A stretch of DNA of 64,000 nucleotides. Source: an uncultured Candidatus Binatia bacterium (GTDB lineage Bacteria > Desulfobacterota > Binatia > Bin18). Position numbers and translations under genes: made by a program. The notes under the pieces were generated by a model. That model saw only the letters and a program-made list of their open reading frames with translations, ran no database searches and was not told the origin of the DNA. Within the stretch, counting starts at the first letter, position 1. Every line of letters begins with the position of its first letter. This document shows, piece after piece, positions 27,930-42,782 of the stretch. The stretch covers positions 576,001 through 640,000 of the forward strand of contig OZ243961.1 of the NCBI GenBank assembly GCA_965214605.1, given 5' to 3'.

Positions 27930-28721
27930 TCAATCCAGCCCGGTATAATCAAACTCCATCGGCGTGATATCCCCCGCCGTGATCGCTCGAATCCGCTCAG
28001 CCGACAGCGGATAGCTGAACTGCTCGTTGCGCATATGGAGGCGCTGGAGCAGGATTTTGCCGACCATGTCGACAATCTCTTGCCATTCGGTCGGAGATAG
28101 CTGCTGCTGAGCCAGGCCCACATAGCCGGCCCGCATATGTCCAATCTCGTCGTTGTAGACCTGCTCGCAGGCCCTGGCGATACGGTTATTGAGCTGGCCC
28201 GAGCCGGCCAGCCGCATACCGGCCGAGTACATACTACAGTAGCCGCCCTCAGTAAAACGCACGGCAAAATAGCCCAAGCGACCCCGCTGCTCGCGATATT
28301 CATAGCGCAGACGGGCCAGTTCGTCGTCAGACTGCCAGCCAACCAACGCGTGCGGGTTCAGCTTCTCCCCACTCAGCCAGTCATAGATATCGGCAAACAG
28401 GCAGTAATGGGCAAACTCCGTGCGCAGATCGTCAATAACGTCAAGCACGGTGTGGCGATCAACCTGGAGGTCGATTTTATCAAAGACCTCGCTCAGATAG
28501 GCAACCGGTCCCTGAAACAGCCCTTTTTTCTTATCCCCAACCCCAGAGCCCCAAATCTCCTTAAAACACTGGCGGCGTAGCCACACCAGATCAGTATCGG
28601 GCGTCCGCATTGGGCTCTGAAAATACGTCCACACCACCTCGGCCTCACCCGCCCAGTAGGGCGCGGCGAGATCGACCAAACGTTTGAGCTGAGGATTAAT
28701 CTGCCGTTTGGCATTCATCAT
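27930..28721 (-). CDS. ferritin-like (diiron) domain protein
   Basis: ExxH motifs TEFAHY and DEIGHM, plus TEGG. Start set at MMNAKR. Confidence 0.7.
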   Translation of the reverse strand: MMNAKRQINPQLKRLVDLAAPYWAGEAEVVWTYFQSPMRTPDTDLVWLRRQCFKEIWGSGVGDKKKGLFQGPVAYLSEVFDKIDLQVDRHTVLDVIDDLRTEFAHYCLFADIYDWLSGEKLNPHALVGWQSDDELARLRYEYREQRGRLGYFAVRFTEGGYCSMYSAGMRLAGSGQLNNRIARACEQVYNDEIGHMRAGYVGLAQQQLSPTEWQEIVDMVGKILLQRLHMRNEQFSYPLSAERIRAITAGDITPMEFDYTGLD

Positions 28722-28734
28722 TTTCTTCCGTCGT

Positions 28735-29433
28735 TCATGGCTCGGCATTCCGATCAATCTCATCTCCCAGCTCACAAATCCCCTGATAGAATAGCTTGCA
28801 GCCCGTCAGCGCCAGTTCCATCCCGTCCAGCACTTCCTGACGTTCATGCTCCGTGGCGACATGCCGGGAGATTGGCTCCCAGACCTTCCGTCCGGCGTGA
28901 TCGTCATCGGCCTTGGTGTGGTAGGTAAAGAAGAACACCTGCTCATCGTTCAGATCATAGGTCTGCTTCCAGGCCTCGGCCCGAAAATTATGCGCGCCCT
29001 GCATAGCGGTGAGGATAAACTCATCGACTGAGGTGGCTAACCAGCCAGCCACCCAGTGCCGCGTGCGGGCAAGGTGCTCCCACACACTCAGGGCCACATT
29101 GACCAGGGGAACGGGCCGGGTGGTGTCCATCTGTTCGTTGGTGAGACCGACGTTGCGGCCCATCTCCCACAGCAGTGTGGTGTGGGGCTGGGCAATCTGA
29201 TCGTCATACACCAGCTCTTCACGCATCTGACCGATGGTTTTACGGACAACGGCCAGGTCTGGACAGCGACTGATCCAGGCTGGTCGAATGACTGCGCTAA
29301 ACAGCCGATTGCGCAGAATATGCTGTAGGATGAAGGCCTGCCCGCGCCCGGGTGTCAAAGGCTCGACCAACCACGGGACTTGGGGAGCGGTTTCAAGGGC
29401 ACGTTTGCAGATTTCGTCAACAATAGTGTTCAT
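28735..29433 (-). CDS. heme-oxygenase-like diiron protein (PqqC/CADD/TenA-like)
   Basis: ISRCPD...MREEL...PH.TL...G, VDE, FFTYHTKADDDHA. Confidence 0.75.
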   Translation of the reverse strand: MNTIVDEICKRALETAPQVPWLVEPLTPGRGQAFILQHILRNRLFSAVIRPAWISRCPDLAVVRKTIGQMREELVYDDQIAQPHTTLLWEMGRNVGLTNEQMDTTRPVPLVNVALSVWEHLARTRHWVAGWLATSVDEFILTAMQGAHNFRAEAWKQTYDLNDEQVFFFTYHTKADDDHAGRKVWEPISRHVATEHERQEVLDGMELALTGCKLFYQGICELGDEIDRNAEP

Positions 29434-29445
29434 ATCTCATCCTCA

Positions 29446-30612
29446 TTACGGCTGCCCCAACACCGCGACACACGACACCGCACCCGGCCCGCCAACGTTG
29501 TGGACCAAACCCAGCCTGGAATTTTGGATCTGACGCGGGCCGGCTTGGCCACGCAGCTGAGTCACAATCTCATACACCATACGGACTCCGCTAGCCCCGA
29601 TGGGATGCCCAAAAGACTTGAGGCCACCGCTTGGATTAACCGGGATATCGCCGTCCAGAGCGGTCCGCCCTTCTTCAATCAGGGTAGCCCCCCGGCCTTT
29701 GGGGACAAAACCCAAGTCTTCATAATTGGTGATTTCGGTCCAGCTAAAACAGTCGTGGACCTCGGCCACGTCGATCTCCATGAGCGGGTCGGTAATGCCG
29801 GCCATGGCGTAGGCCTGGGCCGAGGCGTGCTCAGTAGCCTGAAAGCCGAGGTAGTCATAGCTCGGGTCCATAAAGGGCCGACCGCTGCTCACCGCTAGGC
29901 CCACCCCTTTTACCAAAATATAGTCATCGCGGTATTCTTTGGCCAGATCCGACCGACACACCACAACCGCGGCCGCCCCATCGGTCGTCGGACAGCAGTC
30001 ATACAGGCCGAACGGATAGGCCACGATGGGCGCGGTCAGGACTTCTTCGGCAGAGACGGTCTTTTGCAGATGAGCCTTGGGATTCAACGAGCCGTTGTAG
30101 TGATTTTTGACCGACACCTTGGCCAGGCTCTCACGGGTCAGTCCATAGGTGTGCATATAGCGGGTAGCAGCCAGGGCAAACAGACCCGGCGCGGTTGACC
30201 CGTCATTATAGTAGGGATGCACGCCCTCACGCGCCAAGCCACGCCCCGGACGGTCTTTGTACTTCTCCACCCCGAGCACCAAGGCCATATCGTACAGCCC
30301 GGCCGCCACGGCTATGACCGCGTGACGGAAGGCATCGGTTCCGGTCGCGCAAAAATTCTCGACCCGGGAGATTGGTTTATTGTACAGACGCAGCGCATCG
30401 CCCAAGGAGACCGCGGCCTTACCGTGTCCCTGGGCGGGTGAATAGGTGCCAAGCCAGGCCGCGTCAATCTCGTCAGGGGCAATCTTAGCGTCGTGAAAAG
30501 CGGCAAACGCCGCCTCAACCGCCATTTCTTCGTAACCCTGATCAACATTGTCCCCAAACTTAATGCAGCCTGCCCCAATGACAGCAACCTGATCTTTGAT
30601 GGAAGCGGACAT
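29446..30612 (-). CDS. thiolase (SCP2/lipid-transfer type acetyl-CoA acyltransferase)
   Basis: VENFCATG, KNHYNGSLNPKAH, DCCPTTDGAAA, EVHDCF, NPSGGLKSFGHPIGASG. Confidence 0.92.
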   Translation of the reverse strand: MSASIKDQVAVIGAGCIKFGDNVDQGYEEMAVEAAFAAFHDAKIAPDEIDAAWLGTYSPAQGHGKAAVSLGDALRLYNKPISRVENFCATGTDAFRHAVIAVAAGLYDMALVLGVEKYKDRPGRGLAREGVHPYYNDGSTAPGLFALAATRYMHTYGLTRESLAKVSVKNHYNGSLNPKAHLQKTVSAEEVLTAPIVAYPFGLYDCCPTTDGAAAVVVCRSDLAKEYRDDYILVKGVGLAVSSGRPFMDPSYDYLGFQATEHASAQAYAMAGITDPLMEIDVAEVHDCFSWTEITNYEDLGFVPKGRGATLIEEGRTALDGDIPVNPSGGLKSFGHPIGASGVRMVYEIVTQLRGQAGPRQIQNSRLGLVHNVGGPGAVSCVAVLGQP

Positions 30613-30649
30613 GACTTCTCCCTTCTGCAACAGCTGTCGTGTTCCCCCC

Positions 30650-30857
30650 TACTAGCAGCTTGGACAAGAGCCATGACCAACGTCGCAATCCCTGCCCCTT
30701 GCAGCCGCAAAGCCCGCTACCACTGCGCCTTTGTGGCCGGGTGGTCATCGTCTGTCTGAGACGCTTCTCCGATAGCTCTGGCTCTGGCTTCGGCCTGACA
30801 CTAGTCCATCCCGGTCTTTTACAACTCTTTGGCTCTAGTCCGTGTGTCAAAAGCCAT
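30650..30857 (-). pseudogene. DUF1640/CCDC90-like coiled-coil gene remnant
   Basis: Manual translation MAFDTRTRAKEL*KTGMD*CQAEARARAIGE...PATKAQW*...IATLVMALV; three in-frame stops, with an RBS upstream. Confidence 0.6.
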
Positions 30858-31248
30858 GACTTGGCTCTCCCCTTTCCTGCCCAATATACCCCCTATTAAG
30901 GAAGAAAACAGCGGGGAAAACTTTGCTATCTCACCTTAAACACCTATAGGGAGGTATTGTCTGATTGCCAGGCATGTCAAGCCGCGGCCTGCTTGCCTCG
31001 CCCCCAGCCTCTCCCGCGCCGGGAGGGGGGAAAGCCTCCGCCTACAGCAGGTGAAATTGGCACAGTACTCTGGCCACCTCCGGATCGCTACGCTGTTCTA
31101 ACGCCCAGAACACCTCTCTCAGCTCCTCCAACCGCAGGCGGTTGCCGCTGAGGTCATCTTCCAGGCTCCCCACCTGCCTGCGCAAAGGTCCAACTCATCG
31201 TTCGTCGGTTCCGCAGCACAAAGCCTCTGCTAAGCCGCCACGAGTGTG

Positions 31249-31480
31249 CTACAGGCACTCTAGTAGCCTCAGGGTCAACTGAAATTGGCGGGCAAACCGT
31301 GCGGCCATGTCCTCCCGCAGTTGGTGAGAACGCCTAGCCGTATCGGTCCAGAGTTGCTCATTCTGTTGGGCCCGCAGCTGGCCCATCTCCGCCGGCAACC
31401 GACCGATGTCTCCACGCAATTGCTGGGACCGCGTCCGCCAACCCCGCTTGTCGGGCTTCGAGTCGTATCAGACGCCTCGG
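31249..31480 (-). pseudogene. decayed coiled-coil (DUF1640/XhlA-like) gene remnant
   Basis: RLIRLEARQAGLADAV, frameshift, then QQLRGDIGRLPAEMGQLRA...QLREDMAARFARQF. Confidence 0.35.
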
Positions 31481-31864
31481 TCAAGGTCGGGGATAGCTCT
31501 CCGGGGCGGGCAAGAACACTATGACCAAAACCCCCGGGAGGAAGGATTAACTCATGGCGGCATTCAAGGTCGGATGCCGGAAATGTCAAGTCATGTGGAA
31601 AAGGGGATCAGCCTGACTCGACTGACGGGGCCGTTATGGCATCCACAGCTTCTCCTCAGCAGGGGTAAGCCAAGGCGGCATAATATCGAAAGGGGCGAGC
31701 CAGCAACCGCAGCGGCTCGGTCCCCCCTCCCCTCCTCTCTCCAAGGGGAGGAAAGTGCAGACGGAGACACGACTCGCCAGCGGCTCAATTCCTGGTCTTG
31801 CTTGTTTCAAATCCCATGTCTAGGCTGTGTTGGGAAAGCTCTTCAGCAGACGAATAGGAGAGAT

Positions 31865-34800
31865 ATGAGACGACAACATCACAGTGGTCAGAACGCTCGT
31901 GACTGGCGGCGCCAAATAGCAGCCTCTGCGGAGAAACAACAAGAAAGCGTCTTCACATATAAGTTTGGACTGAGCATACAAGAGGGAGATTTAGACTTTG
32001 CCGCGGCCACTCGAACCTACGACATCACCGAAGGGATTTTATGCGGGAGCTTAATCGGCTTGATATGCGCTGTGCATCTGTCCGGGTTTCGCCTATTTTC
32101 CAAGAGCGGGGAGACACGCCAGTTCCGAAATCGAAGTCGATATCCCGAAGACGCATTCACCAAGGCGTTCCGCGCTCATACGGAAATCATAAACCCTGAC
32201 ATTACGATTCAGTCAATTGAGGCTGTCTTCGCCGCACCTCCGCGAAAGAAAATAGCCTGGTCAGCGGACACCCTTGGGAAGCGGCTGTTTCAAACCTGGA
32301 ACAATCGCTCCCCAAAAGACGCAGAGAGAGAGCACCCAGAATTTTTACTGGCCCAGGGAATCGCTTGCGAAGTCGCCAAACAGTTCTCCGGATGGAAGGA
32401 ACTCGCCGACAATGTAAGCGGTGCACTGGCCTGCGCTGACAGATATCTGGCGACCCTGGGAGACTCCTTTCCAAAACTCAGTAACCTGCCACCCGGAACC
32501 ACGATCAATCCAGACTCTTGTACGCTTGCCTACGATCCCGAATCGCCCTTCGTTGAGATGGTTGGTAACGAAGAAAACTGGCTCCATCAGGTAGTGGCGG
32601 TTTGTGCTGGCAGGCTGAAACGAGACATGCCCGATCGTGACCTATCCTCGTCTGATTTTGCAAAGCGTCTGAACGACGCTGTTGTTACTAGTCAGCACAA
32701 TGGACTGTCTTGGTTATTCGGCAACGGCCTACGCTACCTTCGGAAATCAAGCATTGAGCGGATTACCGAAAACCTTGATGTTCCACACGGGAAGCGCCAA
32801 CGAGTTGAACAACTCAAAGCCTTTGCCGACGCGCTTCCTGACAATCCATTTTTCGACACCAATGGCTATGCCGAGTTTCGTACCTCCGTCGGTGGCAAGA
32901 TCGCCTCATGGGTCTCGAACTACTGGAAGCGCATTTGCGAACTTGCGACGTTGCATTCTCAGCCGCCGGATATCGCTATTCCCGAAACGCTGCAAGATCC
33001 CGATAACGCCTTTCTGTTTTCTGGTCAGCACACCAACGCTGCCGGCCTCATAGACCTCTCTAATCGCATCCCTGAGCGGGTCAAAAAAGCCGGCAATGCG
33101 CTTGTTGTTCTGCGTGGAAGTTGTATTCCTGGACCGGAAGATATCGCCGTCGTTGAATCCGTTGCCGATGAGATGACCGAACTCACTGGGCAACTCTCCA
33201 TGCTCGACAACCGCATTCGGCAGGAAACCGAACGCGCCAAAGACGCCGAAAACGAAAAACGTGCCAAGGTCCTAGAATCCCTCAGGCCAAACATTCCCAA
33301 AGGTCTCAAGGATCTGCCCAAACTAAACAGCATATCAGGCGGCACCGTGGACGCTACCGGTGAGATCAAACGGCTGGAAGCCGACCTGAACTCCGTCATA
33401 CGAGCACGCCGTGAGCACTTCCGGCAACTCTCTGAATGGGCGGACAGTAACGCAGGCGGCCTTGATCCCCTGCCCATCCTTAAAGAACGCGAACAAGAGG
33501 CGCTTTCCGACCGAAACATGGACCTCGATTGTGCAGCTGAATACGCTATCCGGCGTCTGCTTGATCGCATCGGCGTCATGTCGCATCGACTGTCGCCAAG
33601 TGTAGCCGAGCAAATCCGGACCGCCATGACGCCGCTTTTTCGCAGGAAAAAAGAGGCAAACCGCTACTTCTACAATCGCAACGGCAGGATCTATCGGCAT
33701 CCCTTCAGCACCTCACGTCACCAGGCTTATGCCATAGACGTAGAGCGTGCCCACGCAACCGATTGGCTCTTGTGGTTGGAGGAGCGGACGACAGAAATCC
33801 GTAACGCTCTGCGCGCGGATCAGACACGCCTACGCGATCTTCTGTTGATGGAAGCTTTTGTCCTGACGACACGGCTCGGCGGTCTCTCTGATCGTGTACC
33901 GGGGGATCTGGCGAAACCGGAAAACGACTGTCTCAACATTCCTCCCCTGCTCAAAGCGCAGCTCGAGGCTAGGGAGGTTTCGCGCGATGTGGCCGTGCGC
34001 GCCTTCAATCTGTTCAATAGTGCTATCAATGGTCTGTCGTTTCGCGCCTTCCGTGATAGTTTCATTGTTCGCGTTAAGTTTCAGCGCCAAGATCGCGAAG
34101 AAGTATTTTATGTCCCGAAGGAACGCCCCTGGCAGGCACCAGCTGACTATGATTCAGCCAAGGGTGAGATATCTAAGGGCTTGAAGCTCTCCGCAGTCGT
34201 GCGTGACCAAACCGGGGCTGTTCTGCCGCGTGAGACAGCCAAGGGCTTGAGTAAGGCGAAGTTTCCCGAGCCGGGTACGCGTGCCCTGCTGCGTCAATCG
34301 CCTCATGACTGGTTCGTCGAACTCGATGTCCGCTCTACCCAGGCTTCGGAGTTGGCAGGGCTGCCCGTCAAGAAGAACAAAGACGGACTCAAGCGCTGGA
34401 AAGTCCTGAAAAAGCCGGCCTTTCGACTAGTCGGGCCGCCCTCGTTCAAGACGCAGCTCGACCGCGCTCTGACAAGCGGAGAGGTGAAGCTCGGCGACTA
34501 CACGCTCATCATTGACCAGCTCTTCAAACAGTCCTTGTACGTCGAAGGTGAGGAGATACACCTTTTGGCTGAACCGGTAAAGATTCGGGCAGAACTGGCG
34601 GTTCCAGTAATAGACAACCGGCCGTATCCCAAGTCTGAAACCGACTTGATATTTAACAAGATCGTTGCCATAGACCTTGGCGAGCGACGGGTCGGCTACG
34701 CGGTCTTCTCGCTCATAGACTTCGTGGAAAACGGTTGCCAAAATCCGATCAAGGTGGGGAGCGTCGCCATTCCCGCTTTCAGGAAACTGATGGCCGCGGT

Positions 34801-35650
34801 CCGCCGCCACCGCGGGTCGCGGCAGCCCAACCAGAAGGTCGACCAAACCTACTCGAGAGCGCTGATGCAGTTCCGAGAAAACGTGGTGGGAGACGTCTGC
34901 TCTCGCATTGAGACCTTGTGCGAATACTTCGGCGGATTTCCCGTACTCGAAAGTTCGGTGGGAAATTTCGAGACAGGGGGCCGCCAGCTGGAGATGATCT
35001 ATGGTTCAGTCCTGCGCCGCTACACTTTCTCCGAAGTGAAAGCCCATAAAGCCACCCGTAGCCATCATTGGTTCACAGCGGACACCTGGAAGCATCCCTA
35101 CGTCTACACCTACACCTACACCTGGAATAAGAGAGAAAAGCAATATTCCGGCCCATCCAAGCCGCTGAAGATATTCCCCGGCGTCACGATCAACCCGGCC
35201 GGCACCAGCCAGACTTGCCAGCATTGTAAGCGGAATGCCCTTCAGGCGCTGCGTAACATGACGGACAAGGTCGAAGTGGGAGAAGACGGCCGCGTAGTCC
35301 TCGGAAACGGGACGATACGGCTTCTCGAACGAGCCGATTATCTTCCTTCCGAACGAAGAAAATTTCGTCACAACAAAGCAAGGCCGCCGCTAAACGTGCC
35401 TGCCCAGAAAGGATCCCGGCTAAGCCGCGACATCACGCGTATCGCCAGACGAAACATGCGGCAACCCCCATCTTCCACAATGTCACCCGATACCACACAG
35501 TCTCGCTTCAAATGCGTGTACGTTGACTGCGGCTATGAGGGGCATGCCGACGAAAATGCCGCAATTAACATCGGCCGGCGTTTTTTGGAACGGATCGATA
35601 TGGAAACGTCGAGAGGGACGTGCCGGGACTTGACCGGGCAGCGAGAATGA
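31865..35650 (+). CDS. cas12c: type V-C CRISPR effector Cas12c (C2c3), about 1261 aa
   Basis: RuvC-I IVAIDLGE, RuvC-II FPVLESSVGNFETG, RuvC-III GHADENAAINIG; Zn-ribbon CQHC...CVYVDC; N-terminal SGQNARDW and HLSGFRLF, plus GGKIASWVSNYW, as I recall from Cas12c2. Start set at ATG 31865 after AGGAG. Adjacent to cas1 and a short-spacer array. Confidence 0.9.
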   Translation: MRRQHHSGQNARDWRRQIAASAEKQQESVFTYKFGLSIQEGDLDFAAATRTYDITEGILCGSLIGLICAVHLSGFRLFSKSGETRQFRNRSRYPEDAFTKAFRAHTEIINPDITIQSIEAVFAAPPRKKIAWSADTLGKRLFQTWNNRSPKDAEREHPEFLLAQGIACEVAKQFSGWKELADNVSGALACADRYLATLGDSFPKLSNLPPGTTINPDSCTLAYDPESPFVEMVGNEENWLHQVVAVCAGRLKRDMPDRDLSSSDFAKRLNDAVVTSQHNGLSWLFGNGLRYLRKSSIERITENLDVPHGKRQRVEQLKAFADALPDNPFFDTNGYAEFRTSVGGKIASWVSNYWKRICELATLHSQPPDIAIPETLQDPDNAFLFSGQHTNAAGLIDLSNRIPERVKKAGNALVVLRGSCIPGPEDIAVVESVADEMTELTGQLSMLDNRIRQETERAKDAENEKRAKVLESLRPNIPKGLKDLPKLNSISGGTVDATGEIKRLEADLNSVIRARREHFRQLSEWADSNAGGLDPLPILKEREQEALSDRNMDLDCAAEYAIRRLLDRIGVMSHRLSPSVAEQIRTAMTPLFRRKKEANRYFYNRNGRIYRHPFSTSRHQAYAIDVERAHATDWLLWLEERTTEIRNALRADQTRLRDLLLMEAFVLTTRLGGLSDRVPGDLAKPENDCLNIPPLLKAQLEAREVSRDVAVRAFNLFNSAINGLSFRAFRDSFIVRVKFQRQDREEVFYVPKERPWQAPADYDSAKGEISKGLKLSAVVRDQTGAVLPRETAKGLSKAKFPEPGTRALLRQSPHDWFVELDVRSTQASELAGLPVKKNKDGLKRWKVLKKPAFRLVGPPSFKTQLDRALTSGEVKLGDYTLIIDQLFKQSLYVEGEEIHLLAEPVKIRAELAVPVIDNRPYPKSETDLIFNKIVAIDLGERRVGYAVFSLIDFVENGCQNPIKVGSVAIPAFRKLMAAVRRHRGSRQPNQKVDQTYSRALMQFRENVVGDVCSRIETLCEYFGGFPVLESSVGNFETGGRQLEMIYGSVLRRYTFSEVKAHKATRSHHWFTADTWKHPYVYTYTYTWNKREKQYSGPSKPLKIFPGVTINPAGTSQTCQHCKRNALQALRNMTDKVEVGEDGRVVLGNGTIRLLERADYLPSERRKFRHNKARPPLNVPAQKGSRLSRDITRIARRNMRQPPSSTMSPDTTQSRFKCVYVDCGYEGHADENAAINIGRRFLERIDMETSRGTCRDLTGQRE

Positions 35651-35669
35651 GCCACCATCGTTCCTATTC

Positions 35670-35745
35670 TCTTCCAGGCCCAAGGACTTATCATCCATAC
35701 CTCAACCTGGAAGACGTCCCCGCCTCCCCGGACGCCCTTCAAAGA
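35670..35745 (+). ncRNA. candidate Cas12c scoutRNA/tracrRNA
   Basis: TCTTCCAGG/CCTGGAAGA 9-bp stem enclosing a GGA..TCC hairpin and ATACCTCAA (CCTC pairs with the repeat 3' GAGG); CGTCC/GGACG hairpin; CCCTTCA pairs with repeat TGAAGGG. Confidence 0.7.
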
Positions 35746-35757
35746 GGGGAGGCATCA

Positions 35758-36813
35758 TCACCTTACCAGCTTTGAAGAGGAATGGGAGGTAAGGGGAATA
35801 TCGCCTGGCAGCCGATAGGAGACCTTTGGCGGACGCCCGCCTTTACGTTCACCCGCGGCGGGAACGATAAACCGGCGCATGTCGCCGGCCAGGTAAGCCC
35901 GCAGCGCCAACACGCTTCCATGCAACAGATTTTTACGGCGCACAAACTGGTGGGTAGCGGGAACGTAGACAACCTTCTCCATATCGTTCTTCAGCCCGGA
36001 CAAAGTGGCTTTGGTCAGCGAGTCAGAGGCATTGTCCGGGGGATGGGTCCGGCAGGCCCCGGCAACGGCCTCTTCAATCATGTACCGGGCTGGCTCCATG
36101 AGATCGTAGACAAGTCCCATGTAGTCGGTCCCTTCATGCAGGAATCCGTGACTGGGCGAAAGCCGGTGGATTAACAACCAGCGCAAGAGTACCCCAGACA
36201 GGAACATGGACCCTGCATCAAGGGCGGCTGGTAAAGGCCCCTCCCCTCTGCGAGTGATATCAGGGTATCCCATCCGAGTGAAATATCTCCGCCAATATCT
36301 GCGTGATTGCTCGGCTTCCCAGGCCCGTATCTGTCCAAGATTCCGTGTACGCGCCAGCCGTTTGTAGACAGCGCTTGGCATGGGCAGTGTGTTCTCTACC
36401 GCCCGAAAACGTTCACGTACTAGAGTCCGCGCAATATAGGCACGTTTAGATTTATTTGTCCGGGTAACGATCTGTCTGGTCAAAATATCGTCGGCATCGA
36501 CTCTGGGAGCTGGCAAGAAAATCGCTGGGCGGCTGATGTTGCGGCGGTGAACAAGGAGGGGCACTCGGCGAAAGGCAAGTTCGTCAATGAGAGCGACCGG
36601 AATCTGGCCAGTCGCGCCGTAGAACATGATGCAATCAAGCTGCGACAGCTCAGTATCGACCTCGCCTCCGTTATATGTGAACCGCCATAAGTTCTTTTTG
36701 AGCCTTGCTACCTGAGAGACGTATGGTAGCCACAAGGTCGTCTTGCTTCTCCGCTTGGTTGATTTCCATGTCCAAAGAGAATTTGGATGTTGAAATTGAT
36801 CAATTTTAACCAT
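35758..36813 (-). CDS. cas1: type V-C Cas1 (Cas2-independent mini-integrase type)
   Basis: LWTWK..LWLPY N-terminus, AWEAEQSRRYWRRYF, LSPSHGFLH, LVYDLMEP; no cas2 or cas4 nearby. Confidence 0.9.
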   Translation of the reverse strand: MVKIDQFQHPNSLWTWKSTKRRSKTTLWLPYVSQVARLKKNLWRFTYNGGEVDTELSQLDCIMFYGATGQIPVALIDELAFRRVPLLVHRRNISRPAIFLPAPRVDADDILTRQIVTRTNKSKRAYIARTLVRERFRAVENTLPMPSAVYKRLARTRNLGQIRAWEAEQSRRYWRRYFTRMGYPDITRRGEGPLPAALDAGSMFLSGVLLRWLLIHRLSPSHGFLHEGTDYMGLVYDLMEPARYMIEEAVAGACRTHPPDNASDSLTKATLSGLKNDMEKVVYVPATHQFVRRKNLLHGSVLALRAYLAGDMRRFIVPAAGERKGGRPPKVSYRLPGDIPLTSHSSSKLVR

Positions 36814-36874
36814 ATATGTCCTCAGTAAGAAAATCGAAAAATCATTGTAATATAAATATTTATCTGGTATACCT
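36814..36874 (+). promoter_or_regulatory. AT-rich CRISPR leader / divergent cas1 promoter region
   Basis: 61-bp AT-rich spacer with TTGTAA-17nt-TATACC and palindromes ATAAATATTTAT and GGTATACC. Confidence 0.65.
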
Positions 36875-37539
36875 CCAGTTCTGAAGGGGAATTAGAGGCC
36901 GAAAAATATGAGTTCTGAAGGGGAATTAGAGGGTGTGGAGCATGACGCAATCCAGTTCTGAAGGGGAATTAGAGGCTGAAATACGGGCGTTCCTCCAGTT
37001 CTGAAGGGGAATTAGAGGTTCTCAACAGCATGAGGAGTCCAGTTCTGAAGGGGAATTAGAGGTTCTCAACAGCATGAGGAGTCCAGTTCTGAAGGGGAAT
37101 TAGAGGTTCTCAACAGCATGAGGAGTCCAGTTCTGAAGGGGAATTAGAGGTTCTCAACAGCATGAGGAGTCCAGTTCTGAAGGGGAATTAGAGGTTCTCA
37201 ACAGCATGAGGAGTCCAGTTCTGAAGGGGAATTAGAGGTTCTCAACAGCATGAGGAGTCCAGTTCTGAAGGGGAATTAGAGGTTCTCAACAGCATGAGGA
37301 GTCCAGTTCTGAAGGGGAATTAGAGGTTCTCAACAGCATGAGGAGTCCAGTTCTGAAGGGGAATTAGAGGTTCTCAACAGCATGAGGAGTCCAGCAGGGG
37401 AATTAGAGGTTCTCAACAGCATGAGGAGTCCAGTTCTGAAGGGGAATTAGAGGCACGCGCATGACGCACCCCCCAGTTCTGAAGGGGAATTAGAGGATGG
37501 AAGGCTTCGGGCTGCCCAGTTCTGAAGGGGAATTAGAGG
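36874..37539 (+). CRISPR. CRISPR array, 16 repeats (T)CCAGTTCTGAAGGGGAATTAGAGG, 15 spacers (6 distinct)
   Basis: Period 43-44 nt; spacers 18-19 nt with a 25-nt repeat. Spacers 4-13 are identical. Spacer 1 is 12 nt before a 5'-truncated repeat 2. Repeat 13 (37391-37409) has a net 5-nt deletion. The 3' GAGG end and left leader indicate + orientation. Confidence 0.97.
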
Positions 37540-37560
37540 CAGGGAGGGAGGGCTGGAATC

Positions 37561-38286
37561 TCATCGCTGTCCAAGTCGAATCGCCTCGGCCAGGTCTACC
37601 GCGCCGGTGTAGAGGGCGCGGCCGATAATCAGGCCGTGTATACCGTCCGCTTTACATGGCCGCAGCCGCTCAATGTCTTCAAGACTGGCCACGCCACCAG
37701 AGGCAATAACAGGAATCTGAATTGCCCGAGCCAAGAGCCGGGTGGCTTCGATATTCACCCCTAGGGATGTACCGTCACGGATAATATCGGTGTAGACAAT
37801 CTCACCAACGCCCATATCTTGGCACTGTTCGGCAAGTTGCGTCGCCTCAAGCTCAGTCGCTTCAGTCCAGCCTTGGACAGCGACTTTCCCGTCCCGGGCA
37901 TCAATGCCAACCGTAATCCGGCCCAAAAAGCGTCTACATGCCTCAGCTACAATCTGAGGCTGCCGATAGGCTACTGTGCCCAGAATTGCACGCTGTACCC
38001 CGAGTGAGAACATCTGCTCAATCGCCGCTAGGCTGCGCAGTCCACCGCCGAGCTGAACCGGAATATGTAAGGATTGGCAGATTTTTTCTATAGCGTCAGT
38101 GTTCACGCCTGCGCCTGACATGGCGCCGTCAAGATCAACTAGGTGGAGCCGAGCGGCTCCGGCGTCTTGCCAGCGCTGTGCCACGGCGACCGGATCGTCG
38201 GAGTAGATGGTCGCCTGAGCCATATCACCTTGGTAGAGACGCACACACTGACCGGCCTTGAGGTCGATGGCGGGGATAATCTCCAT
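37561..38286 (-). CDS. hisA: ProFAR isomerase
   Basis: IIPAIDLKAGQCVRLYQG, HLVDLDGA, QLGGGLRS, YTDIIRDG, IASGGV. Confidence 0.95.
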   Translation of the reverse strand: MEIIPAIDLKAGQCVRLYQGDMAQATIYSDDPVAVAQRWQDAGAARLHLVDLDGAMSGAGVNTDAIEKICQSLHIPVQLGGGLRSLAAIEQMFSLGVQRAILGTVAYRQPQIVAEACRRFLGRITVGIDARDGKVAVQGWTEATELEATQLAEQCQDMGVGEIVYTDIIRDGTSLGVNIEATRLLARAIQIPVIASGGVASLEDIERLRPCKADGIHGLIIGRALYTGAVDLAEAIRLGQR

Positions 38287-38291
38287 AGGAA

Positions 38292-38951
38292 TCACAGAGG
38301 AGGGTGGTGGTCGGTCACAAATTTGCCGAAGTTGGCCAAGATTTGTAGGCCGACGGCCTGGCTTTTTTCTGGGTGAAATTGGGTAGCGAAGATATTGCCT
38401 GACCAAACACTCGACGCAAAATGGATGCCGTACTCGGTGGTGGTGGCCACGATGGCCGGGTCTGTTGGGATCGGATAATAGGAGTGAACAAAATACACCG
38501 CCGCGCCCTCGGGTATCTTGGCCAAATGGGGGGCTGGTCGCTCAATGTGGAGCTGGTTCCAGCCCATATGGGGGATTTTTTGTGGACCGTTGTCGGTTGT
38601 CAGCAGAGCAGGATCAAAGCGCTCGACCGTGCCTTTAAGGATGTCCAAACCTTGCTCCCGGCCAAACTCGTAACTTTCTGAAAACAGGATCTGCATACCG
38701 ACACAAATCCCAAGCAGCGGCGTGCCGCTGTTGGCCACCCGATGGACGGTTTCGATAAGCCTACATTTAGCCAGCCCGTCCATACACGCGCTAAACGCGC
38801 CCACGCCCGGCAGTACTACTCCCGCGGCAGCCTCAATGCGGGCAGCGTCCCTGGTGATTTCAGCCGGGTAGCCCATCTTCTCGCAGGCTTTTTGGACACT
38901 CCGCAGATTGCCCATACCATAGTCAATAATCGCAATTGTGCCGAGAGGCAT
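38292..38951 (-). CDS. hisH: imidazole glycerol phosphate synthase glutamine amidotransferase subunit
   Basis: IIDYGMGNLRSV, LPGVGAF, GICVGMQ, PHMGWN, YFVHSY, QFHPEKS. Start set at MPLG. Confidence 0.95.
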   Translation of the reverse strand: MPLGTIAIIDYGMGNLRSVQKACEKMGYPAEITRDAARIEAAAGVVLPGVGAFSACMDGLAKCRLIETVHRVANSGTPLLGICVGMQILFSESYEFGREQGLDILKGTVERFDPALLTTDNGPQKIPHMGWNQLHIERPAPHLAKIPEGAAVYFVHSYYPIPTDPAIVATTTEYGIHFASSVWSGNIFATQFHPEKSQAVGLQILANFGKFVTDHHPPL

Positions 38952-38977
38952 TCTCTCTCCTCCGCTCCCTCCCTCTC

Positions 38978-39001
38978 CCTCTAATTCCCCTTCGGAGCTG
39001 G
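38978..39001 (-). repeat. isolated inverted copy of the CRISPR repeat (22/24)
   Basis: Minus strand reads CCAGCTCCGAAGGGGAATTAGAGG, 26 nt upstream of the hisH ATG. Confidence 0.9.
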
Positions 39002-39031
39002 CCAGAGATATAGGTATAGGGCATAGGACAT

Positions 39032-39064
39032 CGGCTATTTCACAATCACACTGCAAAATAGCCG
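39032..39064. terminator. hairpin CGGCTATTT...AAATAGCCG (likely terminator)
   Basis: 9-bp inverted repeat between the GST stop and the orphan CRISPR repeat. Confidence 0.55.
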
Positions 39065-39085
39065 TGTATTAAAGTGGCGTGTTGT

Positions 39086-39808
39086 CTATTCCGGAACCGG
39101 CCGCGCCCGCTGGTTGTAGAGCATCTTGCGCAGGCGGTCTTTCTCTTCCTGCGACAGCTTGGAGAAGTCCATGGACAGCTCGCTGCCAACGGCCATGCCT
39201 TTTTTCACCCCGTCCCGTTCCGAGAGTTCCTCAAACCAGCGTTTGAAATATTTAAACTCGTTGATGTCCTGTCCCTGGGCCTCCCAGCTGACCGTCCAGG
39301 GATAACAAATCATATCGGCGATCGTATACTCATCACCGGCCAGATAAGGCTGCCGATAGAGCTGATTATTTAAGACGCCAAACAGACGGTTGACCTCATC
39401 TGTGAAACGCCGCACTGCATATGTCTGATCACCCTGTTCATCGCCCAAGCGCCGAAAATGACCACACTCTCCGCTTTTGGGGCCTTGGTTGGCCATCTGC
39501 CACATGACCCACTGGTTGACGACGTAACGCCCCCGCACGTCTTGGGGATAGAACTTGCCGGCCTTCTCGGCAATATACATCATCATTGCTCCAGATTCAA
39601 AAATACTGATCGGCTCGCCCCCGCCCAAGGGATCGTGGTCGACCATGGCGGGCATCCGGTTGTTAGGACAGATCTGTAGAAATTCGTCCGTGAACTGATC
39701 TCCACGGCCAATGTTGCAGGGGATCATATTGTAGGCTATGTCACACTCTTCGAGCAGAATAGTCACCTTTTTGCCGTTTGGCGTGGGCCAATAGTGTAAG
39801 TCAATCAT
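39086..39808 (-). CDS. glutathione S-transferase, YfcG/YghU-like
   Basis: WPTPNGKKV, PNNRMPA, IFESGA, YTIADM. Confidence 0.92.
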   Translation of the reverse strand: MIDLHYWPTPNGKKVTILLEECDIAYNMIPCNIGRGDQFTDEFLQICPNNRMPAMVDHDPLGGGEPISIFESGAMMMYIAEKAGKFYPQDVRGRYVVNQWVMWQMANQGPKSGECGHFRRLGDEQGDQTYAVRRFTDEVNRLFGVLNNQLYRQPYLAGDEYTIADMICYPWTVSWEAQGQDINEFKYFKRWFEELSERDGVKKGMAVGSELSMDFSKLSQEEKDRLRKMLYNQRARPVPE

Positions 39809-39937
39809 GCTGCGTACCTCCTTTTTTCCGATATCGACCGACCGGACGTTATGCCACCCTACACCGATTCGACTGACTGGAACAAGCAGGTCTGGATGCG
39901 CAAGCGCCGGGATCTTGCCTGTCGCCGAGCGAACGGC

Positions 39938-40540
39938 TTACGCATCTGTCCACTCGGTATTCCAGCGTGGAAAAAAACGCGGCACCCGCCGGCAGTATGC
40001 AGCATAGGCCTGGCCAAAACGCTGGTGTAATTCCCGCTCTTCAAACACGACAATCACATACAACAGGGGCAGACTCAGTGCCGCCCATACGTATAAGATC
40101 AGATAATTGGCCACAAAGGCGAAGCCTAGCACTGATAGAAACACTTCTAGATAGCGCGGGTGTCGTATCCGGGCATAAATCCCCTCCTGTAACAAGCTGG
40201 ACGGTTGGCTCTGAGAGCGCAGTTCGGGGAGACCGATCATGATACGCAGGGTCAAATATTTGCGGTGCTGGAGTGCAAGCGCGCCTGCTCCGCTCAGACA
40301 CACTACGGCCAGTCCCAGACAGACGGCGTTTGTCTCGTACTTGGTGGCCAACAGCGCACCGCGAACTACAAACAGGCCTCCGCCAAGCATGCTCAGCTCG
40401 GCTCCCACCAGACCATACGTCCAGCCCACCCCCCGTTTACGCCAAAATTCGGCAAAAGGGTGGATGCACAGCCAGAACAACAGCCCCGGCGGGAGGCCGA
40501 TCAGAAACGCGAACGCAATCCCGTAGCGCAACTCATCCAT
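39938..40540 (-). CDS. isoprenylcysteine carboxylmethyltransferase/PEMT family membrane protein
   Basis: GIYARIRHPRY, EERELHQRFGQAYAAYCRRVPRF. Start set at MDELRY. Confidence 0.85.
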   Translation of the reverse strand: MDELRYGIAFAFLIGLPPGLLFWLCIHPFAEFWRKRGVGWTYGLVGAELSMLGGGLFVVRGALLATKYETNAVCLGLAVVCLSGAGALALQHRKYLTLRIMIGLPELRSQSQPSSLLQEGIYARIRHPRYLEVFLSVLGFAFVANYLILYVWAALSLPLLYVIVVFEERELHQRFGQAYAAYCRRVPRFFPRWNTEWTDA

Positions 40541-40747
40541 TAGGTGCACGCCGACCCTCCGCTCCCAACCGACCGCAAGGTCCCCAACTCCATAACAGCC
40601 GATATCACCATTCCTAGGTATGAAGCACCCCCCAATCAGCCCGAGACACCAGGCGGCCTGCCTCCCTCCCCTTGTCTCTTCCCAGATCAGAATAGTACAA
40701 CCGCTTAGAAGACAACATCTTGTTGCGGACATCCGAGATTGGAGGAT

Positions 40748-41803
40748 ATGATGCTGAGGGCACTTGCAGTGTGTAGCGGAAAAGGTGGTGTAGGCAAAAC
40801 GCTGTTATCGGCCAGTCTGGCCCGGATTATTCAGCAAGCAGAAAACTGCAACGTCTTGGCAGTCGATTTAGACCTAACAGTCAGTGGGCTAACCCTCTTG
40901 TCGTTTCACAATAAACTTGAGCTTGATCAAGTCCCAATCTCACTCTTTGACTACCTGACCGGTGATGACAATGCCCAAAGTGCGCTGTTCGGAGCCTTAC
41001 AGGCCGCCGTCACATCAAGGGGCGAATATCCTTCGGCCGTGCTCTACCAGCGTCTAGATCACGTTTTTGTCCTGCCCGCCTCCACAGAAAGTGAGCGTCC
41101 GGACTGGAGCCGGTCTGCCCAGATTGAACTCGACCTGGCGATTGAAAAAATTGCCCAGCTGCGACATTTTGCCGCTGAGTCGCTGGACATCGACTATCTG
41201 ATTTTTGATACTCAAGCTGGCTTGGGCAGCCTCAGTCTGGCCGCGGCAACGCTCAGCGATATGACCCTTATCGTGATGGAAGAAGACGATATCAGCTGGT
41301 TCACCGCGCTGCGCATGTTCACCGAAATTACCGAGTTGAACAGACGCCTCAAAAACCGCTCGCGCAGCTACTTCCTGGCCAACAAAGTCCAAGCTGGGCT
41401 GATGGATATGGCCAGCAAACTGAAAGCCTTTTCCTTTCTGCCACCGATCCCGTTCGATAGCTGGATGCAGCGTCTGGTGTCGAACTCGACCGCCGTTGTC
41501 CTTGAAAAAGAGTTTGAAGACAGCGACTTCTTTCGTCGTTTACAAACCCGGGTGTGGCGAGAAATGGCCAGCCTTTTTGGACTCAGCCAGAGTCCCCAAA
41601 AAAATGCCTCGTTTAGCTGGTGGCGGCAGCTCAAGGGACCGGTCGAGCCAATGCCGAAAGCCAAGCCCACAGCGTCGTCCCCCCCTCCCCGCCTCAGCCC
41701 GAATTTCCAGAACAGTCAGCCAGAAAAAACCACGCCCTCCGCCGCCAAAGCCCAGCCTGCTGACCAACCTCACCGGTTAGACGTCAAAAGTGAAGTCCGT
41801 TGA
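40748..41803 (+). CDS. ParA/MinD-family ATPase
   Basis: SGKGGVGKT, VDLD, DYLIFDTQAG, ANKV. Confidence 0.85.
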   Translation: MMLRALAVCSGKGGVGKTLLSASLARIIQQAENCNVLAVDLDLTVSGLTLLSFHNKLELDQVPISLFDYLTGDDNAQSALFGALQAAVTSRGEYPSAVLYQRLDHVFVLPASTESERPDWSRSAQIELDLAIEKIAQLRHFAAESLDIDYLIFDTQAGLGSLSLAAATLSDMTLIVMEEDDISWFTALRMFTEITELNRRLKNRSRSYFLANKVQAGLMDMASKLKAFSFLPPIPFDSWMQRLVSNSTAVVLEKEFEDSDFFRRLQTRVWREMASLFGLSQSPQKNASFSWWRQLKGPVEPMPKAKPTASSPPPRLSPNFQNSQPEKTTPSAAKAQPADQPHRLDVKSEVR

Positions 41804-41804
41804 T

Positions 41805-42782
41805 CTAATGTGACGGAATCAGGACGACTTTCCCCGTCGTACGTCGGGCGGCCAGATAGCGATGGGCATCGGCCGCGTGGGCAAGGGGAAACGTCCGGTC
41901 CATAACAGGCCGCAGGGTTCCGGCTTGAACCATGGCCAGCAGCTCCTGCATCGGCCGACGATGCAGGGCGACGTACCACGGCGGCATGCCCAGATGCAGA
42001 CCGCTGACCGTAATATTACGGATCAAAATCTGAGTGGCATCAAGCATCGGCAGGGAGCCACTCGCCCGGCCATAAATGACCAGCCGGCCCATCGGCACCA
42101 GGCAGTTCAGGCTACGGGTCAACACGTCTCCGCCAACACATTCCAGCACCACATCGACCCCCCGTCGGTCGGTCATACGCAGGATCTCAGACACAAAGTC
42201 GTGCTCAGCATAGTTAATGACTTCCTGGATGCCAAGGTGGCGTAAACGTTCTAGCTTTTGCTCGCTCGAAGCCGTTCCAAATACGCGGGCCCCCCACAGC
42301 TTGGCCAGCTGGACGGCGATTGTGCCGACCCCGCTGGCAGCGGCCTGGACCAACACAAAATCTTGGGGCTGAAGGCGCGCGCTCGTCTTCAGGAGATGAT
42401 AGGCAGTGGCACCGGCAACCGGCATACCAGCCGCAGCCTCAAAACTCAGGGAATCGGGAAGAGGGTAAACCGCCTCCGGCGGTGCCGTGACATACTCAGC
42501 ATAGCCACCAGTCCCAACCCAGGCCATGACCCGATCGCCAGGCCTGACCGTGCTGACCTCAGCCCCGGTCCGAGCAACCCGACCGGCTACCTCCAGACCG
42601 GGTATCAACGGCAGCGGGTAGGCGAACGGGTAGCGGCCCTGCCGCCGACCGAGGTCAGAATAATTGACCCCTGCCGCCGCCACCTTGATCAGAACCTGCT
42701 CGTCTTCGACAGACGGTTCATCCACATCCTCATAGCACAATACCTCGGGCCCGCCGAACTGGTGAAAACGGATGGCTCGCAT
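41805..42782 (-). CDS. NADPH:quinone oxidoreductase (MDR family)
   Basis: GGPEVL, AAGVNYSD, QAAASGVG, TTGKVVL. Confidence 0.92.
   Translation of the reverse strand: MRAIRFHQFGGPEVLCYEDVDEPSVEDEQVLIKVAAAGVNYSDLGRRQGRYPFAYPLPLIPGLEVAGRVARTGAEVSTVRPGDRVMAWVGTGGYAEYVTAPPEAVYPLPDSLSFEAAAGMPVAGATAYHLLKTSARLQPQDFVLVQAAASGVGTIAVQLAKLWGARVFGTASSEQKLERLRHLGIQEVINYAEHDFVSEILRMTDRRGVDVVLECVGGDVLTRSLNCLVPMGRLVIYGRASGSLPMLDATQILIRNITVSGLHLGMPPWYVALHRRPMQELLAMVQAGTLRPVMDRTFPLAHAADAHRYLAARRTTGKVVLIPSH

Follow-up and report, generated by a model that had tools for sequence, protein, structure and literature searches.

Mirrored CRISPR repeats around hisH-hisA in a Candidatus Binatia genome: probable scar of a lineage-specific inversion at the end of a type V-C array

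In the genome of an uncultured Candidatus Binatia bacterium, the genes hisH and hisA lie between the last repeat of a type V-C CRISPR array and a solitary copy of the same repeat facing the opposite way. With high probability, the mirrored pair was left behind as a scar when hisH-hisA was inverted in this lineage, a change that has become fixed. Sequence comparison with members of the same genus documents that the orientation of hisH-hisA is derived, defines both junctions, and shows the solitary copy to be homologous to a terminal repeat. This history of insertion followed by inversion replaces the idea of an invertible or CRISPR-controlled metabolic cassette, which was raised in a preliminary description of this DNA and is unsupported. 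The window analyzed here is a stretch of 64,000 nucleotides (contig OZ243961.1, positions 576,001 to 640,000 of the forward strand), and coordinates refer to it unless prefixed with C1.

The CRISPR cassette itself displays the usual content of a type V-C system. The effector gene cas12c (31865..35650, + strand) occupies an open frame that extends from 31406, with a likely start at ATG 31865, and homology of this region to the sister-species genomes G006 and G007 starts at 31776. Its predicted product matches NCBIfam NF033950 with 1074 bits (cut-off 250) over model positions 1-1244 of 1246, as well as the Cas12c2 structure PDB 7v93 (E 1.4e-152), and by these measures the gene is intact and full length. 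No cas family other than Cas12c and Cas1 was detected among the ORFs scanned from 30.6 to 36.8 kb, cas1 (35758..36813, - strand) being assigned to Pfam PF01867 (E 7.9e-14). An AT-rich leader with a conserved -10-like motif (36814..36874, +) precedes the array; compared with the leaders of five other loci and found as an 89.5% identical copy at a second relic in the genome, it probably has promoter function. The array (36875..37539, +) comprises 16 repeats of 24 nt that recur every 43-44 nt, with intervening spacers of about 19-20 nt, and includes ten occurrences of one spacer and a 5-nt deletion in one repeat.

The stop codons of cas12c and cas1 are separated by a conserved, structured, non-coding element (35665..35750, +), a candidate tracrRNA/scoutRNA. 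This candidate is conserved in all nine V-C loci compared, RNAalifold predicts 24 pairs in it, four with compensatory changes, and the alignment reveals short stretches complementary to the repeat; an Rfam search of positions 28000-42000, with E up to 1, gave no match. In the available part of the Cas12c2 structure paper, the tracrRNA is described as pairing with the 3' part of the repeat in a short and discontinuous manner (PMC9522604). Just past the candidate, an extra degenerate repeat copy (35766..35789, +; 19/24 matches) overlaps the 3' end of cas1. It was found by a genome-wide scan allowing up to six mismatches (no match for the reversed control) and occurs in this genome only, as an insertion relative to the other eight loci in the alignment. 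Known type V-C systems (Cas12c1, Cas12c2; PDB 7vyx, 7v93, 7v94) likewise combine a Cas12c effector with short repeats and spacers (about 19-20 nt), and this locus also resembles them in that Cas1 is the only adaptation gene detected and that the candidate tracrRNA holds short segments complementary to the repeat. While the effector module is ordinary, its chromosomal setting is what stands out, the array ending at the hisH start codon in two species and being followed by an inverted hisH-hisA here.

The last repeat of the array (37516-37539, +), a perfect copy of the consensus, forms with a G-rich extension (37540-37552) the left arm of the inverted repeat (37516..37552, +). It is identical at 22 of 24 positions to the reverse-complement copy at 38978..39001 (- strand), which ends 26 nt upstream of hisH. 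Aligned without gaps, the arms extend over 42 nt with 79% complementarity (37512-37553 versus 38964-39005); allowing a single 2-nt gap makes 35 of the 41 aligned columns identical (37512-37550 versus 39005-38965). The longest perfect run is 16 nt, and both sides agree throughout the inner 16 nt of the repeat. Past the repeat, the similarity consists of a 10-mer common to both arms, the score of which was reached by 47 of 2000 shuffles and by 7 of 3000 random genome windows. The alignments thus lend moderate support to a real similarity outside the repeat, and this moderate significance leaves the length of the duplicated stretch uncertain and, with it, the mechanism.

Only two genes are enclosed by the arms, hisA (37561..38289, -; TIGR00007, 269.6 bits against a cut-off of 228.95) and hisH (38292..38951, -; TIGR01855, 220.1 bits against a cut-off of 105.4). 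The first shares 79-83% DNA identity with its same-genus orthologues, and the second is single copy in its own genome according to tblastn. Upstream of hisH is a purine-rich leader of 26 nt with a GGAGG motif (38952..38977, -), which is not conserved in G006 or G007. The preliminary description of a mirrored 22/24 repeat plus trailer around hisH-hisA was borne out, with an imperfect inverted repeat of about 40 nt, and so was the remark that neither hisB nor hisF lies alongside, hisF being found at C1:4162005-4162787 and hisB at C1:559224-559655 on the same contig. The idea of a "cassette" does not hold, since the genus normally carries hisH-hisA with neither hisB nor hisF next to it, and this applies to genomes devoid of CRISPR as well. 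When the 16-nt core of the repeat was searched with up to two mismatches, 20 matches were found in the whole 4.37-Mb genome (one for the core read backwards, used as a control): 16 in the array, two in a relic mini-array (C1:176445-176512), the inverted copy, and a single one elsewhere that carries two mismatches. With 18 of the 20 in the array or the relic mini-array, a dispersed REP motif, the explanation that the preliminary description had set against its own, is ruled out.

Comparison by BLASTN of six 19.9-kb loci from relatives with positions 20000-50000 of the window, together with the remaining evidence on gene order, placed hisH-hisA in the opposite orientation relative to the flanking thiolase and/or glutathione S-transferase (GST) genes in seven of seven same-genus genomes. 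The GST gene (39086..39808, -; Pfam GST_N and GST_C) is a conserved right-hand neighbor, with 85-88% DNA identity in six same-genus genomes. In G003, G004, G005, G006, and G007, thiolase and GST are collinear with the window and hisH-hisA is reversed; in G002 the pair is reversed relative to thiolase, and in G001 relative to GST. The CRISPR locus is absent from four of these genomes (G002-G005), and G006 and G007 carry the cas12c-cas1-array cassette at the same site, between thiolase and hisH. Because the CRISPR-less genomes are oriented like G006 and G007, the state of the window is the derived one, with collinear flanks on either side. Among the readings offered by the preliminary description, it is therefore that of a relic of a past inversion which the comparative data show. 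Homology to the CRISPR-less relatives picks up again at 39052. Identity of G006 and G007 to this genome is only 77-83% here, and their hisA-GST spacers can be aligned to that of this genome over 8 nt only.

The junctions point to the same event. In G006 and G007, a degenerate terminal repeat stands directly before the hisH start, on the same strand: in G006 it lies 17 nt ahead of the conserved hisH coding sequence, and in G007 it lies 6 nt ahead of the ATG and is truncated to its first 16 nt, the 3' part being gone. The solitary copy of the window has two substitutions, one of which (C at repeat position 5) is common to the G007 terminal repeat, and it is read as the ancestral degenerate terminal repeat that moved together with hisH. 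Its origin as a leader-plus-repeat relic was considered and ruled out, its upstream flank showing no leader similarity (score reached by 504 of 1000 shuffles, against 0 of 1000 for each of two leader-bearing relics elsewhere in the genome). At the other end, the 8 bases right after the hisA stop (37553..37560, -), kept in G000, G006, and G007, mark the start of the inverted segment and here adjoin the array. No repeat copy occurs in the hisA-GST spacers of G006, G007, and G003, nor is any inverted or separate copy found outside the arrays of G006 and G007, so that the sequence found inverted at both junctions is single copy in the uninverted relatives. The interval from the solitary repeat to the GST stop codon holds a hairpin (39032..39064) homologous to the hisA-GST intergenic hairpin of G003.

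Based on these comparisons, the ancestor shared by this genome, G006, and G007 most likely received a V-C cassette composed of cas12c, the candidate tracrRNA, cas1, leader, and array between its thiolase gene and hisH. The insertion was tight, leaving a degenerate terminal repeat about 6 to 26 nt from the hisH start codon on the same strand. Later, and in this lineage, a 1.45-kb piece consisting of the terminal repeat, the hisH leader, hisH, hisA, and 8 nt past the stop most likely flipped, which left the old terminal repeat reversed beside the GST gene and one repeat copy closing the array. None of the genomes compared shows the state immediately before the inversion. A metagenome scan for a repeat core leading into a hisH start returned 0 stretches, and a scan with the degenerate repeat gave one locus (L032), an unrelated V-C locus without hisH. 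A Cas12c scan of genome contigs yielded five loci (by title, one from Nitrospirales, two from Candidatus Binatia, and two from Bryobacterales), none with a co-oriented gene start at the array end.

The inverted duplication presumably arose in the same event as the inversion, and its most likely cause is a pair of breaks staggered by about 40 nt where the array ends, with recombination with an older inverted copy or a Cas1-type reaction as alternatives. Chromosomal inversions flanked by inverted duplications are accounted for by the staggered-break model, and inversions are also among the products of intramolecular transposition. As in such cases, a segment in derived orientation is bounded here by inverted copies of a sequence that was originally single copy at one breakpoint, and a possible 4-nt duplication can be read at the other breakpoint. 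What differs is that the duplicated piece is a CRISPR repeat with about 13 nt, that no transposase or insertion sequence is involved, and that the arms have since diverged. Since the arms differ at 6 of 41 columns, the duplication is not fresh. The array-side copy is also a perfect consensus and the other is not, which calls either for later homogenization within the array or for a different origin. That the V-C Cas1 itself made the inversion is unlikely. Each end of a break between hisA and GST would have been joined to one border of the terminal repeat, the two joints lying on opposite strands, a geometry equal to spacer integration within one molecule. The product would resemble that of intramolecular transposition, in which inverted copies of a "target site", here the CRISPR repeat, bound the flipped segment. 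If true, a CRISPR adaptation enzyme would be a source of chromosomal rearrangement.

A rival to the fixed inversion is an active switch, in which recombination between the arms of about 40 nt would flip hisH-hisA back and forth between reading from the CRISPR leader and reading from the GST side. Such a switch would suit a segment flanked by inverted repeats whose inner 16 nt coincide, and both orientations do exist in nature, yet each is fixed in different species. The arms are short and diverged, the contents are whole housekeeping genes rather than a promoter, and no recombinase or invertase was found when the larger ORFs between 27.9 and 43.8 kb were scanned against Pfam, the families recognized being thiolase, Cas12c, Cas1, HisA, HisH, GST, methyltransferase-like, ParA-like, dehydrogenase, and cyclase. 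Contigs from three studies contain the orientation of the window only, though assembled contigs hide minority forms: a 51-kb contig (X1, which may correspond to the source sample of the window) spans 37424-39900, a 529-nt contig from a second study (X5) covers 38759-39287 and runs from the 5' end of hisH through the solitary repeat to GST, and a 151-nt contig from a third (X6) covers 38906-39056, all with 0 differences. These observations make the switch very unlikely. The preliminary proposal that inversion would bring hisH-hisA directly behind the array was correct in that this arrangement exists, in G006 and G007; there, however, it is the fixed, ancestral orientation of two sister species, and with a single orientation in the contigs of three studies and no recombinase found nearby, switching in this genome is unsupported. 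Phase-variation switches of the Hin/hix and fimS type are driven by invertases. The present locus shares with them inverted repeats around an invertible-looking segment beside a promoter-bearing element, but no recombinase gene was found nearby, its arms are diverged, whole biosynthetic genes take the place of a promoter, and one orientation only is present in the available contigs. Mis-orientation during assembly, a classic error when a segment is bounded on both sides by short inverted repeats, is extremely improbable: the independently assembled X5 and X6 contigs cross the right junction, and another X5 contig (37514-37850) crosses the left one, linking the terminal repeat with the 3' end of hisA, though with only 26 letters to the left of the junction. 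Loose contig ends at 38955-38989 were low-identity matches to the CT-rich leader and uninformative.

The solitary repeat might instead serve within the hisH mRNA as a crRNA-like element bound by Cas12c and tracrRNA, coupling histidine synthesis to CRISPR activity; Cas12c would bind the repeat as a guide handle and cover the ribosome-binding site, or the following bases would act as a guide. A distance of 26 nt separates the repeat from the hisH ATG, cas12c is intact and full length, and the solitary copy agrees with the consensus over its 3' 16 nt, the part where the tracrRNA pairs according to the accessible portion of the Cas12c2 study (PMC9522604). Standalone regulatory repeats are also known in other CRISPR types, as the accessible sections of one report describe (10.1101/2023.03.03.530964). 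Against this, the element is not conserved: in G007 the 3' part is missing, the bases past the repeat differ in all three species, and the terminal repeats of G006 and G007 are in line with their arrays rather than forming a conserved standalone element of the CreR/scaRNA kind. There is no second repeat, and so no mini-array; by inspection of the sequence, the pseudo-guide partly matches the array trailer alone, with which it has a 10-mer in common, and no T is read at the PAM position. Insertion followed by inversion fully accounts for the position of the repeat. We regard this regulatory role as quite improbable, and the earlier suggestion that Cas12c acts on the hisH leader is unsupported, given the lack of conservation after the repeat and the loss of the tracrRNA-pairing part in G007. 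Scarcely credible is a tracrRNA-like RNA from the + strand of 38978-39064, in which a 24-nt anti-repeat followed by the hairpin would pair with pre-crRNA. Both substitutions are G-U-compatible with the repeat RNA, but the hairpin is the ancestral hisA-GST one, also present in the CRISPR-less G003, the inverted copy is absent outside the arrays of G006 and G007, and 38978-39064 is not a conserved anti-repeat RNA gene within the cas locus. The element between cas12c and cas1, present in 9/9 loci, is another conserved and structured candidate, and its short complementary stretches fit the pairing described for the Cas12c tracrRNA in the available part of PMC9522604. An anti-repeat copy outside the array is absent from 8/8 other loci; an inverted repeat-like match upstream of cas12c in one locus (L027), located in a coding region with 11 nt in a row, was treated as chance. 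The standalone repeats of 10.1101/2023.03.03.530964 resemble the solitary copy as single, slightly degenerate repeats outside an array. In its accessible sections, that report ascribes standalone copies to recombinogenic repeats, describes distal repeats as often degenerate, and places standalone elements mainly in type I and subtype V-A, not V-C. The copy described here differs in being inverted, 1.4 kb away across two housekeeping genes, not kept as a separate element in sister species, and not in a mini-array. Nothing points to a present function of the inverted repeat.

Under the history of insertion and fixed inversion, hisH-hisA would have been transcribed ancestrally by read-through from the CRISPR leader; in this genome, the pair would be read from the GST side and array transcripts would run antisense into hisA. 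In the two sister species, the Cas12c array ends a few bases from the hisH start codon, and an essential biosynthetic operon is thus probably transcribed through a CRISPR array. There, hisH-hisA may be promoterless and expressed only via array read-through, tying a housekeeping operon to the leader. A consensus promoter/terminator scan detected none upstream of hisH on the - strand of the window, nor in the array-hisH interval of G006, and it also missed the CRISPR leader, which makes it uninformative for this organism.

Literature searches on CRISPR repeats in inversions and rearrangements returned neither a V-C array linked to histidine genes nor an inverted terminal repeat, which is not proof of absence; the "order inversions" mentioned in the consulted part of PMC4524480 concern spacer order, not DNA inversions. 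The locus illustrates cleanly, and in a natural setting, how the end of a CRISPR array can act as a breakpoint of an inversion and leave behind an orphan repeat in inverted orientation. Annotators could mistake such a copy for a tracrRNA or a regulatory mini-array.

The region surrounding another relic, at C1:4252044, is not conserved in the genus. More broadly, the thiolase-hisHA-GST interval is a small hot spot for defense genes in the genus, with a Cas12c locus in three genomes and, in G005, HicB upstream of hisH and a GmrSD-like gene between hisA and GST.

A compact CRISPR-Cas locus of type V-C lies in the window, and its effector module is ordinary for this type. The cas12c gene occupies an open frame at 31406-35650, with a likely start at 31865 (NCBIfam NF033950, 1074 bits for a cut-off of 250; PDB Cas12c2, E 1.4e-152). 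It is followed by cas1 on the opposite strand (35758-36813), an AT-rich CRISPR leader (36814-36874), and a forward-strand array (36875-37539) of 16 repeats of 24 nt with spacers of about 19-20 nt. An identical 20-nt spacer occurs ten times in tandem within 36995-37453, and one array repeat has a 5-nt deletion (37391-37409). Ahead of the conserved start of the cas12c region, about 1.1 kb next to the thiolase gene (30631-31775) is without counterpart in G006 and G007, the genomes of two sister species carrying the V-C cassette, where this gap is about 140 nt; searches of Pfam with the ORFs of this stretch gave no match.

The last repeat of the array (37516-37539) is followed by 13 G-rich bases, then 8 bases, and then the stop codon of hisA (37561-38289), which lies with hisH (38292-38951) on the reverse strand, both products scoring above their NCBIfam cut-offs (TIGR00007 and TIGR01855, respectively). 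The hisH ATG is preceded on that strand by a 26-nt purine-rich leader, and upstream of this leader is a solitary inverted copy of the CRISPR repeat with two substitutions (38978-39001; 22/24). Beyond it are a 33-nt hairpin (39032-39064) and a reverse-strand glutathione S-transferase (GST) gene (39086-39808), whose 3' end adjoins the hairpin side. The preliminary description had hisH-hisA bracketed by inverted repeats, and this was borne out by the alignment of the two arms (42 nt at 79% ungapped; 35 of 41 matching columns with one 2-nt gap) and by a genome-wide count of the 16-nt repeat core. At two mismatches or fewer, this core is found at 20 places in the 4.37-Mb genome: 16 in the array, two in a relic mini-array on the same contig (C1:176445-176512), one in the inverted copy, and one that matches with two mismatches; the pattern read backwards gave a single match. 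Being mostly confined to the array, the motif is not a dispersed REP element, a reading that the same description had considered. Arm homology probably extends past the repeat as a shared 10-mer, whose score was reached by 47 of 2000 shuffles and by 7 of 3000 windows drawn at random from the genome; these tests did not require a position beside the repeat, so that the true chance is lower, and the comparison is also a post hoc one.

The orientation of the two genes was compared by searching 30 relatives with the 2.36-kb hisA-to-GST stretch and by comparing 19.9-kb loci from six same-genus genomes with window positions 20000-50000. Three genomes without a CRISPR locus (G003, G004 and G005) have the same order, namely thiolase, an interval of about 0.8 kb, hisH and hisA pointing away from thiolase, and GST converging on hisA; in G005, this interval contains a HicB-family gene (locus L024, 7777-8112). 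The thiolase-hisH-hisA order is kept in G002, with the GST gene located elsewhere, and in G001, known from a short contig only, hisA converges on GST with 1.9 kb between them. In G006 and G007, cas12c, cas1, leader and array lie between thiolase and hisH, at a site identical to that of the window, and hisH-hisA comes next, co-oriented with the array and converging on GST. With the conserved flanks as reference, the window has hisH-hisA the other way round from seven of seven same-genus genomes, and since their orientation is common to genomes with and without CRISPR, that of the window is derived.

The junctions in the sister species identify the solitary copy. The last, degenerate repeat of the G006 array stops 17 nt short of the conserved hisH coding sequence, and that of G007 is reduced to its first 16 nt, 6 nt ahead of the hisH ATG; in G003, which has no CRISPR locus, the sequence upstream of the ATG is unrelated except for its last few bases. 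In both sister species, hisH is therefore flanked on its 5' side by the terminal repeat, and the solitary copy has the same position relative to hisH. It is degenerate, as is usual for terminal repeats, and one of its two substitutions is common to the terminal repeat of G007. Upstream of it, the sequence does not resemble the CRISPR leader (score reached by 504 of 1000 shuffles); two other repeat relics in the genome do carry leader sequence (0 of 1000 shuffles each). The 8 bases past the hisA stop codon are kept in the window, G006 and G007, and adjoin the array in the window. The inverted piece is thus about 1.45 kb long, from the old terminal repeat through 8 nt past hisA. Together with the opposite orientation in all seven relatives, these terminal-repeat junctions show that the arrangement is the relic of a past inversion, one of three options initially proposed. 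The event is of a known kind, a repeat-bounded inversion leaving an orphan CRISPR repeat, of which this is a new instance.

Another of these options, an invertible switch placing hisH-hisA behind the array, proved historically real as regards the other orientation, which is that of G006 and G007, but present flipping was not seen. In sequencing run X1, possibly the source sample, a 51-kb contig spans 37424-39900 with 0 differences. Run X5, from another study, has a 529-nt contig (38759-39287, 0 differences) joining hisH, the solitary repeat and GST, and a 340-nt contig leading from the terminal repeat into hisA (37514-37850); run X6, from a third study, has a 151-nt contig (38906-39056, 0 differences). 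No alternative junction was detected among the contigs of the three runs. This rules out an assembly artefact and argues against a frequently flipping switch, although a rare minority form could be hidden in such assembled data. No recombinase was found among the ORFs scanned (27.9-43.8 kb).

An RNA function of the solitary copy was also considered. Read in reverse complement, its two substitutions are both compatible with G-U pairing to the repeat, and a hairpin comes next, as would suit an anti-repeat RNA (tracrRNA). This reading was rejected because another structured element, the non-coding stretch at about 35665-35750 (forward strand) between the stop codons of cas12c and cas1, is conserved in nine of nine V-C loci (the window, G006, G007, five named MAG records and one metagenome contig, from Binatia, Nitrospirales and Bryobacterales records), because the inverted copy was not found outside the arrays of the other eight loci, except for one match in a coding region (L027), and because the neighbouring hairpin is also present in the hisA-GST spacer of the CRISPR-less G003. 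The predicted consensus structure of 35665-35750 has 24 pairs, four with compensatory changes, and Rfam returned no match for it. Several short segments of it are complementary to the repeat, and in this it resembles the Cas12c tracrRNA/scoutRNA, which according to PMC9522604 pairs with the repeat via short, discontinuous segments; it is a candidate Cas12c tracrRNA/scoutRNA. Directly after this candidate, and overlapping the last cas1 codons, is a degenerate forward-strand repeat copy (35766-35789; 19/24), an insertion unique to this genome among the nine loci. A forward-strand transcript would place it right behind the candidate tracrRNA, resembling a natural single guide. As for the hairpin beside the solitary copy, its stems are similar in the window and in G003 (L026, about 9995-10027), and the window loop approximates the reverse complement of the G003 loop (about 9/12 by eye), which suggests a small loop flip between palindromic stems.

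The remaining option, binding of Cas12c and its tracrRNA to the repeat in the hisH leader, is unsupported and has a low probability. In its favour, Cas12c is intact, as is the solitary copy over its 3' 16 nt, Cas12c2 is reported not to cleave double-stranded DNA in vitro (PMC9522604), and the native antiviral activity of Cas12c is attributed to DNA binding without cleavage (preprint 10.1101/2021.12.06.471469). However, the G007 repeat lacks its 3' part, the bases following the repeat differ across all three species, and a second repeat that would make a mini-array is absent. Processing by Cas12c2, as reported in PMC9522604, requires an upstream repeat with a 17-22-nt spacer and the first six bases of the downstream repeat, yet the hisH strand of the window has no upstream repeat. 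The history of the locus suffices to explain why the repeat lies where it does, without invoking a function. The solitary copy has the properties of an inversion scar, and not those of a conserved regulatory element or a tracrRNA. The closest known concept is that of standalone, or orphan, repeat-like sequences of CRISPR-cas loci, which have been ascribed, in the preprint 10.1101/2023.03.03.530964, to the recombinogenic nature of repeats and regarded as raw material for regulatory cr-like RNAs.

Three routes might have led from the ancestral arrangement to the inverted duplication. The first follows a staggered-break model from the literature on inversions. Breaks at the end of the array that are offset by about 40 nt between the strands, with flipping and fill-in, would duplicate the terminal repeat and about 13 nt, inverted, in one event; this would agree with what may be a 4-nt duplication at the other breakpoint. 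Alternatively, the terminal repeat could have recombined with an older inverted copy downstream of hisA. The position of the arm differences in the outer parts fits this route, which leaves the origin of such a copy unexplained, and none was found in G006, G007 or G003. The third would be an intramolecular Cas1-type reaction joining break ends to both repeat borders, on opposite strands, as in spacer integration; if true, a Cas1-type reaction within one molecule would have caused the inversion. It predicts inverted copies of the repeat exactly, and the shared 10-mer counts against it, unless due to chance. As the array-side copy is a perfect consensus and the other has two substitutions, every route requires that the array repeats were homogenised later. 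An over-long "spacer" of about 33 nt in G006 (L022, 8370-8402) shows that such arrays do give rise to pieces of inverted repeat: it starts with 17 nt of inverted repeat right after a normal repeat, forming a local palindrome.

The inversion would also affect transcription. In G006 and G007, the array and hisH lie too close together to leave space for a promoter or terminator, so that transcription of hisH-hisA would most simply start at the CRISPR leader and continue across the array. In the window, transcripts of the array would enter hisA in antisense, and hisH would need to be read from the GST side, across a hairpin without a following U-run. A terminator-like hairpin with a T-run lies antisense within hisH on the array read-through strand (38346-38370, forward strand); this T-run is unbroken in this genome only, being interrupted by synonymous differences in G003-G007, and the element may be due to chance.

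Defence genes cluster in a small hot spot around hisH-hisA, and an array abutting hisH inside it is a mildly interesting setting. Between hisA and GST, G005 has a 2-kb insertion with a GmrSD_N (DUF262) gene and an unknown ORF (L024, 9874-11561), and G001 (C424) has a 1.9-kb gap at the corresponding place. Literature searches returned no account of histidine genes linked to a V-C array, or of such an inverted terminal repeat, which is weak evidence of absence.

V-C repeats lie directly before a co-oriented gene start at three places in this genome: hisH, a hydrolase gene and a small ORF. A relic of a second V-C locus (C1:176170-176512; L001, 1218-1560) comprises the first 213 nt of cas1, the leader, two perfect repeats and one spacer, and is 89.5% identical to window 36601-36932. 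Its last repeat is separated by 9 nt from the start codon of an alpha/beta-hydrolase gene; in G001, G003, G004 and G005, its flanking genes are adjacent, about 370-420 nt apart, and homology resumes 1-9 nt from the hydrolase ATG. A third relic (C1:4252044-4252087, reverse strand; L039), in a region unconserved in the genus, consists of the last 19 nt of the leader and a degenerate repeat with three mismatches; this repeat overlaps both the ATG and the ribosome-binding site of a small ORF whose N-terminus is hydrophobic. Finally, with 0 matches at six mismatches or fewer for the reversed pattern, a repeat-like 24-mer with five mismatches was detected at C1:3339099-3339122 (reverse strand), matching at 17 of 18 central positions.
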